The notes under the pieces are model-generated. The model made no database searches. It had not been told where the DNA came from and worked only from the letters and a program-made list of their open reading frames with translations. The position numbers were made by a program, and so were the translations under genes. This document shows positions 5,391-50,737 of a DNA stretch of 54,320 nucleotides, in pieces. Location: the UHGV virus genome UHGV-1522278. One strand, 5' to 3'. The number at the start of each line of letters is the position of its first letter. Within the stretch, counting starts at the first letter, position 1. This DNA comes from a virus.

Positions 5391-6509
5391 TTACAAAATG
5401 GAAAATTCAGGGTAATAAACAAAGCGCCCGATCTCACCATGATCCGGGCTGTAGATGATAACCGCCGCCAGGCGACGCGACCGCCATCCGCCATTAGTCG
5501 AATAAGCATCCTTACCGGCTAACGTGCCGTGGTGCTCAACAATTCCGAGCGACGTTTCAACGACTGATTGATGGTGCAGATGTCCAGTGTGCGCGTAAAC
5601 AGCAACCGACTTCCCGAAATCCTCGCGCCAGTCAGAGACGCAAGCAGCCAATAAATTTTCAGGCTTTTTGATAGTGTGCCCGTGGTGGTAAGCGAGAAAT
5701 GTTTTACCGTACTGCGTGTGGTGAACGATAGCAGGTGACACATCAACCGTCACACGCGGTTCATCTTCGTAAAAAGCCGCCAGCGCCGCACGTAACCAGA
5801 TCATCCCTGACTGATCGTGATTGCCTGATAACACCTGGATTTCAATATCCTTATGATTTAACAACATCTTACCTACAGCACGCCGGACAGACCTGATCGC
5901 TACATAGACAAGTTTTGCATAACGACTATCTTGATCAAGAATGTGCCCGCTTGTTGGCGTAACCGGGACCATTCCATCAGAATGAAGCAGGTCGCCACCT
6001 AGAAGCAAAACGGCTTTTTCAGACATCGGCGCGGCGCCCACAGCGTAGTCAAAGAAGTCATTCAACACGCGCTCAGCGATCCCGGTGTCGTAGCTCTCGC
6101 CGCATTCTGCTTTGTGAGCAAGTGCGCCGATATGCAGATCAAATACCGGATAAAGGGCCAGGCTTTTTTGGAAATCAATTTCCGGCACTGGCACGGCCTC
6201 CGCGCGTGGTATTTCTTCCGTGAATGCGTCGCGGGCCGATTCCATTAGCTGTTCCATTTCATCGCGGTCACGGGCTGTTTTAATCCAGCGCATGATCACA
6301 TTGCCGTTCTTATCGACTAGCAACGACTCGCCATTGACGCCAAAACCAGGCGCGCGGCGTGTTGACAATAAACCGCGTTTCGCCAGTTTTGCCCCCAGGC
6401 GCTCTACGTTGCGTTTTGACATGCCGTACTTTTCAGCGATCTGCTTGTACGTTAAACCGTTGTTATATTCAGCGATCAATTGCTCATCGCTTATCTTTCT
6501 TTGTGACAT
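5391..6509 (-). CDS. HTH domain fused to a calcineurin-like metallophosphoesterase
   Basis: 372 aa; N-terminal HTH (LTYKQIAEKYGMSKRNVERL); phosphoesterase motifs DLH, GGDLLH, GNHD, HHGH, GHLHH. Confidence 0.8.
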   Translation of the reverse strand: MSQRKISDEQLIAEYNNGLTYKQIAEKYGMSKRNVERLGAKLAKRGLLSTRRAPGFGVNGESLLVDKNGNVIMRWIKTARDRDEMEQLMESARDAFTEEIPRAEAVPVPEIDFQKSLALYPVFDLHIGALAHKAECGESYDTGIAERVLNDFFDYAVGAAPMSEKAVLLLGGDLLHSDGMVPVTPTSGHILDQDSRYAKLVYVAIRSVRRAVGKMLLNHKDIEIQVLSGNHDQSGMIWLRAALAAFYEDEPRVTVDVSPAIVHHTQYGKTFLAYHHGHTIKKPENLLAACVSDWREDFGKSVAVYAHTGHLHHQSVVETSLGIVEHHGTLAGKDAYSTNGGWRSRRLAAVIIYSPDHGEIGRFVYYPEFSIL

Positions 6510-6543
6510 AGTGTCATTTCCTCACGAATAACAAATTGTATAC

Positions 6544-7284
6544 TTAGTTACAAGTTAAAAGCTCAGTGATCCATACTTGTCCTTTAGCAGTGAATACAGC
6601 CTGCTCATATCCATCGTGAGTTACCCTCATTTCACCGTAGCCCTCATCAATAAACCACTGACTGAATACACGGCGGCGACAGCGAAGATCGTAAACACCA
6701 ACCGCCGAAAGTTTTCTGTTTAATTTTACGGCTGACATTCCCAGCGGTTTAGCTACCTCTGAAGCCGTTCGGTGCATATCGTTTTTGACTATCGCGTCAC
6801 ATACAGCCGCTTTCGGAGCCAGCACCTTGTTTTCAAGCGTAAGCCGTTCATTTTCTTTCTTAACTAACAATTTTTGCTCAACCTCATCCGCCCATGCGCG
6901 GGCTGCCGCAACCGGATCAGTGAAATCCGGCAAAGCTAGTTTGTGTTGCGCCTCCTCCAACTCTTTAACGCGTTTAATTACCTTCATGCGTTGCTTAACG
7001 TCATAGCCAGTGATCAAGCACATTGTTAGCTCTTTATTTAGCAAAACCTCATCAATGACGTTGCGACCTTTGTACTGCTTGTACTTAAACAAAAACCCTA
7101 TAAATTCAAAATCCTGCATTTTTGCAGGATAAAAATCATGTTCAGTAAACCCTAAATCTAGCAGCATGTTTTTAATATCACGCACAACCACAGAAGAATG
7201 ATCCTTGTCTGTTGCTTCTGCTATTTCACGCGATGAAATCATTAATACTTCGCTATCGACATCAAAAACCATCAATTCAGACAT
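6544..7284 (-). CDS. antirepressor-like protein (Rha N-terminal + KilA-C/ANT C-terminal domains)
   Basis: start set at the ATG at 7284 with GGAGA RBS; Rha-like motif ISSREIAEATDKDHSSVVRDI. Confidence 0.75.
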   Translation of the reverse strand: MSELMVFDVDSEVLMISSREIAEATDKDHSSVVVRDIKNMLLDLGFTEHDFYPAKMQDFEFIGFLFKYKQYKGRNVIDEVLLNKELTMCLITGYDVKQRMKVIKRVKELEEAQHKLALPDFTDPVAAARAWADEVEQKLLVKKENERLTLENKVLAPKAAVCDAIVKNDMHRTASEVAKPLGMSAVKLNRKLSAVGVYDLRCRRRVFSQWFIDEGYGEMRVTHDGYEQAVFTAKGQVWITELLTCN

Positions 7285-7651
7285 TGTATTTTCTCCGTAA
7301 AACGCGCTACAACGCAAAAATCCCACCGCGTAACCCGTTTGCACAGGTTGCAGTGTCTTATTGCGTTATAGACGCTCTCAGGTGGCTAATTTTTGATTTA
7401 CAGGATGGTATGAAGGTTATAGATTGACCAGAAGGAACAAACCGCCGAACAAAGCGACGTTAACGGCGATTGCAGCAGCGATGGCAAAAGCCAGGGCAAA
7501 AACGTGTTTACCGTCCATTTTGAAATCCTCTCTAAAACGCTCTCTAACGAGATAAATAGCTAAAGGTATGCAAGTGTAGCACTCAATGCTTTTTAGCTCG
7601 CTGGTGAGCTTGTTTTGCGGGTAATTTTGTGTTTTTGCGTATCGTGTTTGG

Positions 7652-8704
7652 TCAAAGAGCGCCACATCGTGTATCACGTAGCGTTTTTGGTTTAAGCAGG
7701 AAATCAAGTGTCGCAGTGAAGCCATCGCCGAAGTAAAAATCTGAAGCATTGTTTTTGAACGTTTCAAAGTAGGCGACAAAGCCGTTAATGCTTTTGTCTT
7801 TCAGGTAGTCAGTGAACGCATAAATCTTGCGTTCAAGATCCCGATCCAGTTCGGCAGGTGGCAACATGCCATCAAACGTGCTGTTAAATGCCTCCACTAC
7901 GTCGGCAGCGTTTGCAGTGGCTGACAGTTTGCGCCATTTTTCAGCATCAGCCAGATACCCATCAAATTTAGTCACCCGGCAAATGTTTATAGGCTTAGGT
8001 GTTCCACCACGGCTACGCCATTGCGTTAAAGCCCACTCAATCACTAATGTGATCTCATCCTCCGTATACGCTTTACGTGTTTTTGTTTCTGTCAGTAGTT
8101 CTACGAATGGCTTAGCATCACGACACTTGCATCCTGCCTTGTCGTTGTAGAAGGCCAGACAACGCAACGCCGCTTCGTTTACGCCATCCTGACTGACCGT
8201 TTTTTGTTCATTTTCGACAATACACGAAGTGTATATATCTTTTTCTCTTTCTTCTTCTTCTTCTAATTCTAATTCATGACCCTTTCCTGACCCTGTCATG
8301 ACCCTATCATGACCTTTTTGTGTTTGATTGATTAGCTTTTCTAATTTTAATTGCTCCTTAGCTGTGTTTATTGCTGCCCTGTATGCGCTTTTAGAAGTCA
8401 TTGATTGGTCAAGCCTTTTCAATAACTTTAAACAAGTTATGTGGCCCTGAGAACATTCGAATAAACCAATTTCGATAAAGTATTTCATCATTTCTTCTAT
8501 GCGCTTTTCAGTAGATCCTACGTTTCGCGCAATGATTCTTGCATCGTGTCGAAGGTCAAAATTAAGGTTGTGCTGATCTACGTCGTAAGTTATCAGTTCG
8601 AGGCAATACCAATAAAGACCGTAACCTTCCAGGCCATAATCTAATAAAACGTTTTGAAGTTTTTCATCGCGGTTCGCATCGCTATCATGCTTAAACCACT
8701 TCAT
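7652..8704 (-). CDS. phage replisome organiser / replication initiation protein (DnaD-like N-terminal domain)
   Basis: N-terminus MKWFKHDSDANRDEKL...GYGLYWYCLELI resembles the Lin1244-type replisome organiser domain; start 8704 chosen for GGAGGA spacing and ATGA coupling. Confidence 0.75.
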   Translation of the reverse strand: MKWFKHDSDANRDEKLQNVLLDYGLEGYGLYWYCLELITYDVDQHNLNFDLRHDARIIARNVGSTEKRIEEMMKYFIEIGLFECSQGHITCLKLLKRLDQSMTSKSAYRAAINTAKEQLKLEKLINQTQKGHDRVMTGSGKGHELELEEEEEREKDIYTSCIVENEQKTVSQDGVNEAALRCLAFYNDKAGCKCRDAKPFVELLTETKTRKAYTEDEITLVIEWALTQWRSRGGTPKPINICRVTKFDGYLADAEKWRKLSATANAADVVEAFNSTFDGMLPPAELDRDLERKIYAFTDYLKDKSINGFVAYFETFKNNASDFYFGDGFTATLDFLLKPKTLRDTRCGAL

Positions 8705-8706
8705 AA

Positions 8707-8961
8707 TCATTCCTCCGGCAACATAACTACATAGACACCACTAAACGCATCAATACGGCAAACAAACCCTTTGCTAATTAATGCGGCGAAGGCATCATGT
8801 ACCGTATGAACAGGAAGTTCACACATTTTTGCTACTTCTTCGCGTGATACGCTTGTCCGCCCCTGGCTATCCGCCGTCTCAGCAAGGGCGATCAAAACTA
8901 GTTTTTGAATCGGGCTGTTAAGTTTTACGTTCCATGCTTTGCTAATTATGTTCATGCTCAT
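8707..8961 (-). CDS. HTH DNA-binding protein, first gene of the leftward early operon
   Basis: 84 aa from the ATG at 8961 with AGGAGA RBS; HTH-like segment SREEVAKMCELPVHTVHDAF. Confidence 0.6.
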   Translation of the reverse strand: MSMNIISKAWNVKLNSPIQKLVLIALAETADSQGRTSVSREEVAKMCELPVHTVHDAFAALISKGFVCRIDAFSGVYVVMLPEE

Positions 8962-9070
8962 CGTGTTTTCTCCTATGGTTAGAGTGAACGCGCTGGCGGG
9001 CATCCAATTAGCATTAGATAGCAGTGACTGACCGCTCAACAGATCCCGCCGTTGCGTGATATTTGTTTTT

Positions 9071-9102
9071 CGCTTCGCAGCGACACCGGATTTTTAAAGA
9101 GC
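9071..9102 (-). promoter_or_regulatory. nut-like site (boxA-like GCUCUUUAA plus hairpin) in the leftward early leader
   Basis: minus-strand reading AGCTCTTTAAAAA then 11 nt then CGCTGCGAAGCG (4-5 bp stem, GCGA loop). Confidence 0.35.
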
Positions 9103-9143
9103 TTTTAAGGTATGTTCCTTTTGTGCTTTCCATTATCTTTTTT

Positions 9144-9159
9144 CTTGCATCCTTGCAAG
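9144..9159. promoter_or_regulatory. operator-like palindrome CTTGCA-tcct-TGCAAG in the divergent immunity region
   Basis: perfect 6-bp inverted half-sites; further half-sites CTGCAAG at 9176-9182 and CTTGCA at 9232-9237. Confidence 0.45.
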
Positions 9160-9267
9160 TATGGACTTACCTTGTCTGCAAGTTTACAGAATGGCGTTAA
9201 CAGGTCAAGGATTGAAAAATACATTTTGTGACTTGCATCAAACTTTTTTAGCTTATAGGGTAGCGAC

Positions 9268-9915
9268 ATGAAAACAAAATGGTATGACTTGGCAAAACAA
9301 CTCATGCGGGCGCAGGGCATGAGTCAGGATTCACTGGCTGATCTCATGGGGATAACAAAAGGCGGCTTGTCGCACTGGCTGAACGGTCGCCGTGAGCCAA
9401 ATCTTGAAGATATTGCGCGGATCATGCGGGCGCTTGGGCGTCGGCAATTCACTGTCACACATGATGGGATGGTCATCGATGATTCTGTTTCTAACACGTT
9501 ACCGGGAGCGCCACCGCGTGATTTAGGCAGTTACCCGGTTGTTGACTGGAAGGACGCAGTAAACAATATGGAAGATGCAAGGCGATCAACATTACCACAC
9601 GTTACAACTAGCGTTATTTGTTCTGATGATAGTTATTGGCTGGTAGCTAAAGGCGAATCAATGAACGCTCCGCAAGGATTGAGTATACCAGCGGGGACGA
9701 TGATACTTGTCGATCCGCACGCGCCAGCTATTGACGGCAAACTAGTTATAGCCCAACTGGAGGAAGGGCAAACTCCTACGTTTAAACAGCTTGTTATTGA
9801 TGGAGGTCAAAGGCTTTTACGTTCACTCAATCCGCTGTATCCACCGATCCCTATGAATCCAGAATCTAAAATCATAGGTGTGGTAGTGGATGCGAAGATC
9901 GTAAACCTGCCATAA
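9268..9915 (+). CDS. cI-like repressor (HTH plus S24 LexA-type peptidase domain)
   Basis: 215 aa; N-terminal HTH (SQDSLADLMGITKGGLSHWLNG); C-terminal S24 motifs GESM and a downstream Lys. Confidence 0.88.
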   Translation: MKTKWYDLAKQLMRAQGMSQDSLADLMGITKGGLSHWLNGRREPNLEDIARIMRALGRRQFTVTHDGMVIDDSVSNTLPGAPPRDLGSYPVVDWKDAVNNMEDARRSTLPHVTTSVICSDDSYWLVAKGESMNAPQGLSIPAGTMILVDPHAPAIDGKLVIAQLEEGQTPTFKQLVIDGGQRLLRSLNPLYPPIPMNPESKIIGVVVDAKIVNLP

Positions 9916-9920
9916 ACACT

Positions 9921-9946
9921 AGCCGCCGAATGGCGGCTTTTCTTTG
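9921..9946 (+). terminator. rho-independent terminator after the repressor gene
   Basis: AGCCGCC-gaat-GGCGGCT followed by TTTTCTTT. Confidence 0.6.
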
Positions 9947-10037
9947 CTAAAAAACACCAAAACGTAAACAGAAAACCATGTTTATCATTTAAATATCAAG
10001 TGCTTATAAAATTTTATAAAAAAGTATACAAAATGTG

Positions 10038-10066
10038 TTGACTCGTGTTTTTACGGGGCGTATATT
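10038..10066 (+). promoter_or_regulatory. near-consensus sigma70 promoter (TTGACT - 17 nt - TATATT) flanked by an inverted repeat
   Basis: -35 at 10038-10043, -10 at 10061-10066; TTGACTCG (10038-10045) and CGAGTCAA (10069-10076) are exact reverse complements. Confidence 0.55.
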
Positions 10067-10108
10067 TCGAGTCAAAAGGAGGAAGCAAGGCAGGGAAAGA
10101 AGGTTACT

Positions 10109-10146
10109 TGCTCTTTAATAATCTGGTCAGCCGCTGGAAGTGCGGC
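10109..10146 (+). promoter_or_regulatory. nut-like site: rrn-type boxA (TGCTCTTTAATAA) plus boxB-like hairpin
   Basis: boxA-like 10109-10121; hairpin GCCGC-tggaagt-GCGGC at 10130-10146, in the leader of the rightward early transcript. Confidence 0.45.
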
Positions 10147-10202
10147 AATTAACGAAGATGATTTTTTATTAAGTATCATCAAGGATATAAGGAGATCAGA
10201 TC

Positions 10203-10493
10203 ATGACAGTTACAATCATGTATGGCAAATGTGACAGTAAACTGAATGCCAGGGAACGCAGAAGAATAAAAAGAGAAAACGAAAGAAAATCATCACCTGC
10301 AATTAATAAAACAGACAATGTGGATAAAGCTATTCGCTTTGCAAACGAGGAAAGATGCAAACCAAATAGCATTAAAGAACGTCGCAAAGGAGCAGTAAAA
10401 TGGTATACGGAAAATGAAAGCGGCAACTACTACCACGCAACGCAACCACGCCATTTAGGGGAAAAACCACTTGATAAAGTCCGTTACCATTAA
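10203..10493 (+). CDS. Arg-rich small protein, candidate N-like antiterminator
   Basis: 96 aa, strong RBS AGGAGA; N-terminal Arg-rich motif NARERRRIKRENERK; first gene after the boxA/boxB-like site. Confidence 0.5.
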   Translation: MTVTIMYGKCDSKLNARERRRIKRENERKSSPAINKTDNVDKAIRFANEERCKPNSIKERRKGAVKWYTENESGNYYHATQPRHLGEKPLDKVRYH

Positions 10494-10523
10494 TACAAAA
10501 TGTAAACAGCCGGAGGTGACGTT

Positions 10524-10646
10524 ATGGTTATTCAGGCGCTCCAATTCAAACTGGCGGTAGCGGAAATGCTTCATGATGCCGAAATGTGGAGCGCCGCGAA
10601 TAAAGCCTTATATATAGTGTTAACAGCGAAGGAGATTAAAGAGTGA
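10524..10646 (+). CDS. small ORF (40 aa)
   Basis: GGAGGTG RBS; stop overlaps the erf GTG start (GTGA). Confidence 0.35.
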   Translation: MVIQALQFKLAVAEMLHDAEMWSAANKALYIVLTAKEIKE

Positions 10647-11284
10647 AAACAGAGTTACACAAAAAACTGTGGACGATTCAGCAAACGCTGAACGCGCCGA
10701 AAAATCAGCGTAATAATTTCGGTGGATACAATTACAGGTCGGCGGAGGATATTTTAGAAGCGGTCAAACCACTGCTTCAAAGTATTACGCTGACTGTAAG
10801 CGATGAAATTGTCCTGATCGGCAATCGCTATTATGTGAAAGCCACTGCGACACTAAGCGACGGTGAGGATGAAATAGCGGTAACGGCTTACGCCAGGGAG
10901 GAAGAAAGCAAGAAGGGAATGGACGCAAGCCAGTTAACTGGCGCGACATCAAGTTACGCGCGTAAATACGCTTTGAACGGGTTGTTCTGCATTGATGACG
11001 CAAAAGATCCTGATACTGATGCTTACGCGAAACAGACAAATCAACAGCCACGCCAGCAGAAAAACCCACCAAAACAACAACCACAGCAGCAGAAAGCGCC
11101 TCCAAATCCTGATGAGGTGTTAGCGCGTTTCTGTGATGCGGCAGCGAAAGCGCAGGACGCTAACAAATTGCGCGAGATCTTCTGGAAGTGCTGGAAGCTA
11201 CTGCCTAAAGATTCAGAGCAGCAACAGAAAGCCAAAGACGTTTATGACATTAGATTAAAAGAGCTTAACGGGGAGATCAGTTAA
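10643..11284 (+). CDS. erf: Erf-family single-strand annealing protein
   Basis: 213 aa; strong similarity to P22 Erf N-terminal domain (LNAPKNQ..FG.Y.YRS.EDILE.VKPLL...DEIVLIG.RYYVKATAT). Confidence 0.88.
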   Translation: MKTELHKKLWTIQQTLNAPKNQRNNFGGYNYRSAEDILEAVKPLLQSITLTVSDEIVLIGNRYYVKATATLSDGEDEIAVTAYAREEESKKGMDASQLTGATSSYARKYALNGLFCIDDAKDPDTDAYAKQTNQQPRQQKNPPKQQPQQQKAPPNPDEVLARFCDAAAKAQDANKLREIFWKCWKLLPKDSEQQQKAKDVYDIRLKELNGEIS

Positions 11285-13877: not shown

Positions 13878-13917
13878 GTTGCGATCGCATAAATATACGT
13901 TTTGTGTTGCGATCGCA
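13878..13917. promoter_or_regulatory. two copies of the palindromic motif GTTGCGATCGCA
   Basis: copies at 13878-13889 and 13906-13917, each with a central GATC, in a 99-bp intergenic gap. Confidence 0.35.
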
Positions 13918-17449: not shown

Positions 17450-17608
17450 AATTTACAAAATGGCGTCATTGCGTGATGTGGATCACATAATGGCGCTTTT
17501 TACCTTGTTCTGACGTATCCATTTTGTATACTTCAAACAAGCAAAATGCTCTTTAAAAATCCGGCAGCGCTGAAATGCGTAGAAATCACCTGAAAAGGAG
17601 AGAGCATT

Positions 17609-37850: not shown

Positions 37851-38007
37851 TTTCTTATCCTCTTTTGCTTCCTCCGGTTAATCCGGCCTTTTAAGTCCCT
37901 TCGCTCTATCCCTTTTCTTTATCTTCTTTATACAAAATGTACTCGTTGAAGTGAAGCCATTTTGTATAAAATAGAGACGTGGATCACATTTCGTATGAGG
38001 TTAAATC

Positions 38008-41106: not shown

Positions 41107-41275
41107 ATTGGCCTCCTTTGTTGGTGCTGCTTTCTCTTCTTGATTTCTATATACATCTTGTCACGTCATGTGTGAAGCCGTTTTGTAAACTGGGTATAAT
41201 TCTTGTGACAAAGTTCTCATTTTTCGCGTAGAAGCGCGTAAAGATGTATGCAATATGTAACTTATAGGGGGAATC

Positions 41276-42629: not shown

Positions 42630-42785
42630 TCATTTGACAGGTTCGATCCTGTACCCCAAAACGCGTTCGTCTTCAGCGAGTAAGAGCGCGTCGGTAAGTG
42701 CCTCGCCTTCATCTTTATACAGGGCCACAGTCATTTTCCTGCCATCCGCAAGGAACACCGTCAACCTCCACACCTTGTCATCCAT
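42630..42785 (-). CDS. small protein (51 aa), first gene of cassette C
   Basis: start at the ATG at 42785 with GGAGGTG RBS; MDDKVWRLTVFLADGRKMTVALYKDEGEALTDALLLAEDERVLGYRIEPVK. Confidence 0.45.
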   Translation of the reverse strand: MDDKVWRLTVFLADGRKMTVALYKDEGEALTDALLLAEDERVLGYRIEPVK

Positions 42786-42913
42786 TTCACACCTCCGCGC
42801 CATTTTGTTAACCATGCTTCCTTTTGAGTACAATATACATATTGTAAAAAACGCGATCAACCGTTTTGGCATGATTTAGCGTGATTTAGATCACAAAATG
42901 ACAAGGTGATAAA

Positions 42914-50560: not shown

Positions 50561-50737
50561 TTTTGAACCCTCATTCTTGTTTGTTAATCCGGTTCACCCG
50601 GTGACTTAAATATCCGGCAAAACCACATTTCGTATATTGACACAGATCAACAAATACATTTTGTGTAAGCAGAAAATGCAACACAGATCACAAAATGGTA
50701 GAATTATTCCGTTAATTAACAAAATGGAGTCATCGAG

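Follow-up and report, generated by a model that had tools for sequence, protein, structure and literature searches.

The window analyzed here, a single stretch of 54,320 nucleotides, is a coliphage of the published mEpimmI group, with relatives mEp021 and mEp515. Across positions 8700-9920 its DNA is 88-94% identical to that of six Mexican E. coli phages that include these two, and its repressor, Rep, is 93-100% identical to the mEpimmI repressors (43 IMG/VR loci); the mEp phages have a repressor gene annotated at the matching place, and 35 complete E. coli genomes, out of 5,426, carry the same control region as prophage. The group comprises temperate, Nus-dependent, non-lambdoid phages (Negrete-Mendez et al. 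2025, PMC11893012). In that study, plasmid-expressed mEp021 repressor blocked all six phages, i.e. immunity was established by experiment; three nut sites were described for the mEp021 group, of which nutL lies upstream of the repressor gene; and the Rep fold was modelled, the operators and promoters being left undefined and the absence of cro unremarked (PMC11893012). By that paper's account, N-type antitermination via nut sites was shown to function for mEp021 in work that it cites (PMC11893012).

Features of the locus are collected in Table 1. The rep gene faces away from a leftward operon in which an 84-aa gene is followed by the replication protein and then by a Rha/ANT protein, and the gap between the divergent start codons (leftward ATG at 8959-8961, rep ATG at 9268) measures 306 bp, as an earlier note on this DNA had it. 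The Rha-plus-ANT (KilAC) protein of this early operon (6547-7287, minus strand) is of antirepressor type. On the other side, the terminator scan gave the site directly after rep and otherwise a terminator-like match at 10042-10057; downstream of PR, whose predicted start is near 10073, come nutR1 and an arginine-rich N-like gene, gp17. After gp17 there is a 40-aa ORF (10524-10646, plus strand) with a weak Lambda_Kil match below the Pfam cutoff, and a repressor-type dyad lies at the gp17 stop codon, just upstream of this ORF. The mEp021 record begins rep, at its position 11218, with internal Met18; we place the start at 9268 of the window. The upstream ATG yields the N-terminus MKTKWYDLAK, and since a homologue of 36% identity has the identical N-terminus, the longer form is likely correct. 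About three quarters of the relatives carry a GC-rich insertion of ~212 bp between PR and nutR1 (4090-4300 in L001, which is mEp021), near which a 37-aa gp16 is annotated in mEp021; it is missing from the window, where it would fall between ~10094 and 10095. Rfam gave no family for the insertion of the relatives, only a sub-threshold P14 match, and found nothing in 8700-10300 or in the whole window.

Table 1. Genes, signals and candidate regulatory sites of the window; matrix ranks are among ~54,300 scored positions.
Feature	Position	Strand	Sequence or composition	Basis or score	Remark
First gene of leftward operon, gp14-like	8707-8961	-	84 aa	HTH_36 / winged-helix	
nutL	9070-9102	-	boxA GCTCTTTAAAAAT 9102-9090; boxB hairpin 9084-9070	read; boxB by fold prediction	
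Predicted PL	9181-9208	-	-35 TTGACC 9208-9203, 16-bp spacer, -10 TAAACT 9186-9181	promoter scan	
O_L1 candidate	9184-9196		TTACAGAATGGCG	5.2 bits, rank 54	overlaps PL -10 and spacer
O_L2 candidate	9219-9231		ATACATTTTGTGA	15.4 bits, rank 3	
CRP-like palindrome	9227-9242		TGTGA-CTTGCA-TCAAA		centre 9234.5, about -61 from predicted PL start
Predicted rep promoter	9233-9261	+	TTGCAT 9233-9238, 17-bp spacer, TAGGGT 9256-9261	read from sequence	
rep, CI-like repressor	9268-9915	+		Pfam: HTH_3 3.3e-13, Peptidase_S24 2.7e-19	
Intrinsic terminator after rep	9921-9938	+		terminator scan	t1 in mEp021
O_R2 candidate	10026-10038		ATACAAAATGTGT	15.3 bits, rank 4	abuts PR -35
Predicted PR	10038-10066	+	TTGACT, 17-bp spacer, TATATT	promoter scan, 10/12 matches	
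O_R1 candidate	10051-10063		TTACGGGGCGTAT	7.2 bits, rank 30	overlaps PR -10
nutR1	10110-10146	+	boxA/boxB	read	
gp17, N-like	10203-10493				
nutR2	from 17548	+	boxA/boxB	read	
Dispersed repressor-type dyads	5391-5403, 6529-6541, 10493-10505, 13895-13907, 17517-17529, 37930-37942, 37955-37967, 41248-41260, 42835-42847, 50623-50635, 50654-50666				
Further CRP-like palindromes	17472-17487, 41204-41219, 42776-42791, 42880-42895				

The earlier note had singled out, as the likely repressor operator array of this gap, the palindrome CTTGCA-tcct-TGCAAG at 9144-9159 together with the half-sites CTGCAAG (9176-9182) and CTTGCA (9232-9237). All of these elements are exactly where it put them, and the palindrome is the sole zero-mismatch match in our dyad search. 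The pattern itself does not exceed chance: the window has 34 copies of CTTGCA (39 expected) and 150 perfect 6+6 palindromes with spacers of 0-8 bp, and among dinucleotide shuffles of the 306-bp gap 39% hold a palindrome of this kind, with a hexamer count of five or more in 16%. Conservation was followed in 44 homoimmune relatives (repressors 93-100% identical), where the palindrome arms are perfect in 11, match at five of six positions in 31 and at four of six in two. The half-site CTGCAAG becomes CAGCAAG in eight of the 44 and CTGAAAG in one, with TGCAAGTTTAC common to the window and the sister clade (L095) at this place. By position it would be the flank of the PL start, covering the predicted start and the outer flank of O_L1; its AAG plus the T at 9183 (AAGT) fits a weakly preferred outer flank of the operator dyad described below. 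Equivalents of the other half-site read TCGCAA or TCGCGC in the relatives and it is therefore not an operator half-site; the CTTGCA at 9232-9237 appears to be essentially the -35 (TTGCAT) of the candidate rep promoter. The longer word TGCAAGT is present three times in the gap (9154, 9177 and, inverted, 9231), two of the copies being 23 bp apart, and these repeats could be contacts outside a 13-bp core.

PL is the sole leftward promoter that the scan called in the gap, with a predicted start near 9174. Its -10 is invariant in 27 distinct relatives, and the promoter aligns with two others, namely the lytic PL promoter in L095 and a paralogue located upstream of nutR2. The palindrome at 9144-9159 would thus lie at about +15 to +31 of the PL transcript, upstream of nutL, in a leader that varies more than any other part of the gap and has indels among the relatives. 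Between the nutL boxB and the gp14 ribosome-binding site, an element of ~95 nt (8966-9066, minus strand) is conserved above neighbouring coding DNA; its fold is a long stem, 8988-9000 paired with 9045-9057, that closes over hairpins. Across 12 sequences a compensatory change, G-C to U-A, is seen once, as is a change of G-U to G-C, and Rfam gave no match to the element. A 39-aa ORF on the minus strand (9014-9133) was rejected, as most relatives have a 2-bp deletion inside it.

The candidate rep promoter was below threshold and was not called by the scan, which likewise overlooks the lytic promoters read by eye in L095 and L104 (8 of 12 bases, under threshold). Its predicted start would be the A of the rep ATG, giving a leaderless mRNA. 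A -10-like hexamer, 6 nt and then the ATG is a geometry common to the window, L095, L046, L103 and L104, and it suggests that the rep mRNA is leaderless and that its promoter resembles PRM, O_L2 being at about -43; the ATAGG of the -10 region is invariant among the relatives. TAGGGT could instead be a ribosome-binding site. Another plus-strand candidate from the scan, TTAACA-17-TACATT, was rejected as rep promoter, its -10 reading CACGTT in most relatives.

Operators of homologous repressors provided the comparison from which candidate Rep sites could be named. A scan with the Rep alignment over one genome per species found no relatives, and a protein search with the 70-residue N-terminal domain alone returned near-identical fragments only. 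The relatives used are a sister clade (L095-L100), with the same gene order, a repressor of 56% identity and an identical recognition helix (ITKGGLSHWLNGRREP), and four more distant loci (L046, L101, L103 and L104), with repressors of 36-52% identity and a divergent cro in each. In the sister clade, cro encodes a 75-aa HTH_3 protein, lies 124 bp from rep and has nutL downstream of it. In each of the four distant loci, three ATAC-N5-GTAT dyads with 0-2 mismatches per site are found in the ~100-bp gap between cro and rep (in L103, ATACGTTTCGTAT, ATACATTTTGTGT and ATACAGTTCGTAT): the first covers the lytic -10, the second is centred ~42 bp before the rep ATG, and the third covers the rep -10, the -10-like hexamer ending 6 nt ahead of the ATG. 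The L103 lytic promoter, as called by the scan, is TTGCCA-17-TATACT, with its -10 over O1, and the rightward promoter of L101 has a dyad pair 25 bp apart flanking the -35. Each residue of the window recognition helix, TKGGLSHW, is found in one or other of the four distant repressors.

A symmetrised matrix was built solely from 14 sites of these four relatives, and the whole window was scored with it. The sites at 9219-9231 and 10026-10038 rank third and fourth, and they match the family dyad in position also, the former corresponding to O2 of L103 and L104 and the latter to the PR site of L101. O_L2 shares 12 of 13 bases with the middle operator of L103; its centre, 9225, is 43 bp upstream of the rep ATG, 1 bp separates the site from the rep -35, and its variants among the relatives remain inside the family pattern. 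At O_R2, GTATACAAAATG is invariant in 33 distinct relatives. O_R1, with one mismatch to ATAC-N5-GTAT, is 25 bp from O_R2, a pair that mirrors the one at L101 PR. O_L1 has the register of L103 O1. Most mEpimmI relatives have TTACAAAATGGAA at this position, scoring 13.3 bits, and mEp021 has a site of 9.5 bits; the weak site of the window leaves PL repression poorly explained here. Apart from O_L2 and this weak O_L1, the matrix gave no site in the gap, and none over the rep -10. The window, L024 and L001 represent the three main variants, and each of them keeps ATAC-type sites at the four positions. The core of PR is bracketed by an 8-bp inverted repeat (TTGACTCG / CGAGTCAA, 10038-10045 and 10068-10075), the right arm of which varies in relatives.

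The window has nine sites of at least 12 bits, versus 1.4 +/- 1.2 in shuffles (maximum 5). The enrichment appears only with the matrix, which carries flank and spacer preferences; the strict pattern ATAC-N5-GTAT with at most one mismatch is not enriched genome-wide (18 versus 25 expected). A repeated box, AAGTWTACARAATGK, had been considered as an asymmetric operator or as a -10-plus-spacer promoter motif, and this was dropped once L101, L103 and L104 showed symmetric sites; by comparison with those it would comprise the strong half of the family dyad and its spacer. The syntenic sites of L095 reach only 3-9 bits and resemble dyads with a 6-bp rather than a 5-bp spacer (for example GTTTAC-GAATTG-GTAAAC). 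As the recognition helix of L095 is identical, specificity may not follow from the helix alone. A near-perfect 18-bp palindrome, GTTTACGAATTGGTAAAC, lies over the PL -10 and spacer of L095 (2915-2932), its TAC/GTA half-sites likewise 6 bp apart and not 5.

We judge, with moderate confidence, that the gap is the PL/rep-promoter control region of an mEpimmI phage, in which Rep would most likely bind ATAC-N5-GT(A/G)(T/A) and not CTTGCA; Rep binding, like the promoter positions and the leaderless start, is proposed from sequence comparison. The earlier note was right that a control region separates the repressor gene from the leftward early operon, and the span it flagged contains or adjoins the best operator candidates. 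Its identification of the CTTGCA elements as the repressor operator array does not hold up: they are at chance level, partly conserved, absent from PR and unlike the operators of the relatives. The palindrome is thus probably not a repressor binding site, better-supported candidates of other sequence adjoining it.

Some points would favor CTTGCA-N4-TGCAAG and the two half-sites as the Rep operators, with a roadblock to PL downstream of its start and control of the repressor's own promoter via the element at 9232. The perfect dyad is in the right intergenic region, TGCAAGT recurs with the spacing given above, and the TGCAAG beside the PL -10 is kept in the sister clade. We nevertheless regard this arrangement as very improbable. 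The pattern does not go beyond chance; 33 of the 44 homoimmune relatives have broken arms; PR, which also needs repression, has no copy; and in the sister clade, whose recognition helix is identical, the palindrome has no counterpart. With the relatives' operator matrix no positive score in 9100-9290 overlaps 9144-9159, the third best hit being one of 1.84 bits at 9128-9140, and a position of +15 to +31 is atypical for CI-type operators.

The palindrome might act in RNA instead: close to the 5' end of the PL transcript it would form a hairpin of 6 bp, which could stabilise the message or set the distance between the start and nutL. It is within the predicted transcribed leader, and the hairpin is present in both the minimum-free-energy and the centroid folds, nested in a stem of 9107-9115 with 9165-9173. 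An intrinsic terminator it is not, as an A run follows on the transcribed strand. Such an RNA role seems quite unlikely: compensatory changes are lacking, the most frequent variant, A to G at 9149, would give the leftward RNA a C-A mismatch, the z-score of the leader fold is only -1.9, and no other part of the gap varies as much as this leader, with its indels. A lack of any function, the palindrome being a dyad of chance origin within a rapidly evolving leader that arose with the replacement of cro, strikes us as less improbable, though still unlikely. The shuffle statistics, the imperfect conservation and the variability of the leader are all in keeping with it, and the relatives, which carry cro at that position, have no such sequence; against it, the core CTTGC and TTGCAA are invariant in 27 distinct relatives, and some constraint is possible.

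Returning to Rep bound at ATAC-N5-GT(A/G)(T/A), O_L2 would be the strong site on this side, one base from the rep -35. Rep bound there could stimulate rep transcription and could help to load a second dimer on the weaker O_L1, which would cover the -10 and spacer of PL. Beyond rep, the second pair would work at the opposite promoter, with O_R2 and O_R1 bracketing the PR -35 and covering the PR -10. The elements of the earlier note would then be by-products, i.e. the rep -35, the flank of the PL start and a poorly constrained piece of leader, and the palindrome at 9144-9159, within the PL leader, would at most give a small hairpin near the 5' end of the RNA.

The earlier note also remarked that no separate cro-like gene is evident, and here Pfam, tblastn and RefSeq agree with it, none giving one between the two genes. 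Queried with the Cro proteins of four relatives, tblastn found in the window only the HTH domain of Rep; the other 15 window proteins, 10 early ORFs included, have no HTH_3 match in Pfam; and the RefSeq annotation of the 35 E. coli prophages has nothing between the leftward gene and rep. Every relative examined has a cro (72-75 aa, HTH_3), and the mEpimmI group is alone among its relatives in being without one. The place of cro is taken in the window by the leader, nutL and the conserved ~95-nt element. The absence of a third dyad over the rep -10 fits a loss of Cro-type function; its weight as evidence is slight, given that the sister clade combines a cro with only a poor site there.

The first leftward gene, which stands at the place of cro in the relatives, looks like one for a replication-module protein. 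Its alleles are only 36% identical between homoimmune phages, and the divergence runs on into the N-terminal part of the replication protein, whose C-terminal 190 residues are 85% identical; for these reasons we assign the gene to a replication-specificity rather than an immunity module. Its homologues match HTH_36. This match and the 36% identity among homoimmune phages led us to reject gp14 as a Cro analogue.

Repressor-type dyads are not confined to the control region: 10 of the best 15 are within the 9.7% of the window that lies outside long ORFs. Several are in divergent gaps beside leftward accessory islands, as seen when coordinates were compared with the mEp021 annotation; these islands are (i) gp63, (ii) gp65-68, (iii) gp71-74, with an 'antirepressor', and (iv) gp80-81, with a lipoprotein. 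Matches to the box pattern are syntenic in mEp021. A PL-like promoter, ccTTGTTC-16-TATACT, is found in 17503-17560, 9-15 nt upstream of the nutR2 boxA (17548-17560), with a predicted start near 17539; a repressor-type dyad covers its -10 and is nearly invariant in 25 distinct relatives, in which the flanks vary. This suggests a third repressor-controlled early promoter, which would make one per nut site.

A second kind of palindrome, resembling the CRP site TGTGA-N6-TCACA, occurs eight times in the window (1.6 expected), mostly in the same regulatory gaps. The copy at 9227-9242 matches 9 of 10 bases, has CTTGCA as its 6-bp spacer, keeps its arms invariant in the relatives and has a syntenic copy in mEp021; a class I CRP site, for comparison, is centred near -61.5. 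The site at 17472 also has invariant arms among the relatives, with a free spacer, and syntenic copies in mEp021. At both PL and the nutR2 promoter the CRP-like centre is 47-49 bp upstream of the -10. These palindromes could bind host CRP or a phage regulator.

One could tentatively go further and picture the mEpimmI control region as a CI-type switch that has lost cro and the operator at the rep promoter. Rep may, on this still doubtful extension, control a dispersed set of at least nine dyads rather than PL and PR alone, including those at the third early promoter upstream of nutR2 and in the divergent regions of four leftward accessory islands among the tail genes; several of these regions would have a CRP-like palindrome, one of which overlaps O_L2 at the class I position of PL.

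In phage lambda, CI bound at OR2, at about -42 or -43 and adjoining the PRM -35, activates PRM. The window resembles lambda in its CI-like repressor (HTH plus S24), encoded between two lytic promoters, in a strong site that adjoins the -35 of the maintenance promoter as OR2 does at PRM, in a repressor mRNA that is probably leaderless, and in N-like antitermination, its boxA/boxB nut sites lying downstream of the early promoters. It differs in having no cro as first gene of the divergent lytic operon, two operator-like sites per side rather than three, with none over the rep -10, a maintenance promoter paired with the replication operon instead of the cro operon, and an operator sequence unrelated to that of lambda; lysogens of the mEpimmI group, moreover, are not UV-induced (PMC11893012). 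With mEp021 and the mEpimmI group it shares the same rep, nutL upstream of rep, the N-like protein gp17 and three nut sites. L095, L046, L101, L103 and L104 are like the window in having a homologous repressor that begins MKTKWYDLAK, with ATAC-N5-GTAT ~42 bp before the rep ATG and over the lytic -10; unlike it, they have an HTH_3 cro of 72-75 aa and, over the rep -10, a third site. Dispersed repressor sites are known from mycobacteriophage L5 ('stoperators') and from the C1 operators of phage P1. The window is like these in having repressor-type sites scattered through the genome, mostly between genes, and differs in that its sites are candidate dyads for a CI-type dimer.

In human gut samples, mEpimmI phages reportedly equal lambdoid phages in frequency. 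For a repressor whose immunity has been demonstrated, concrete candidate operators and promoters can now be named, and the eye-catching palindrome of the gap is probably a distraction. The layout prompts one to ask what commits a CI-type, N-dependent phage to lytic growth when it has no second repressor of the Cro kind.
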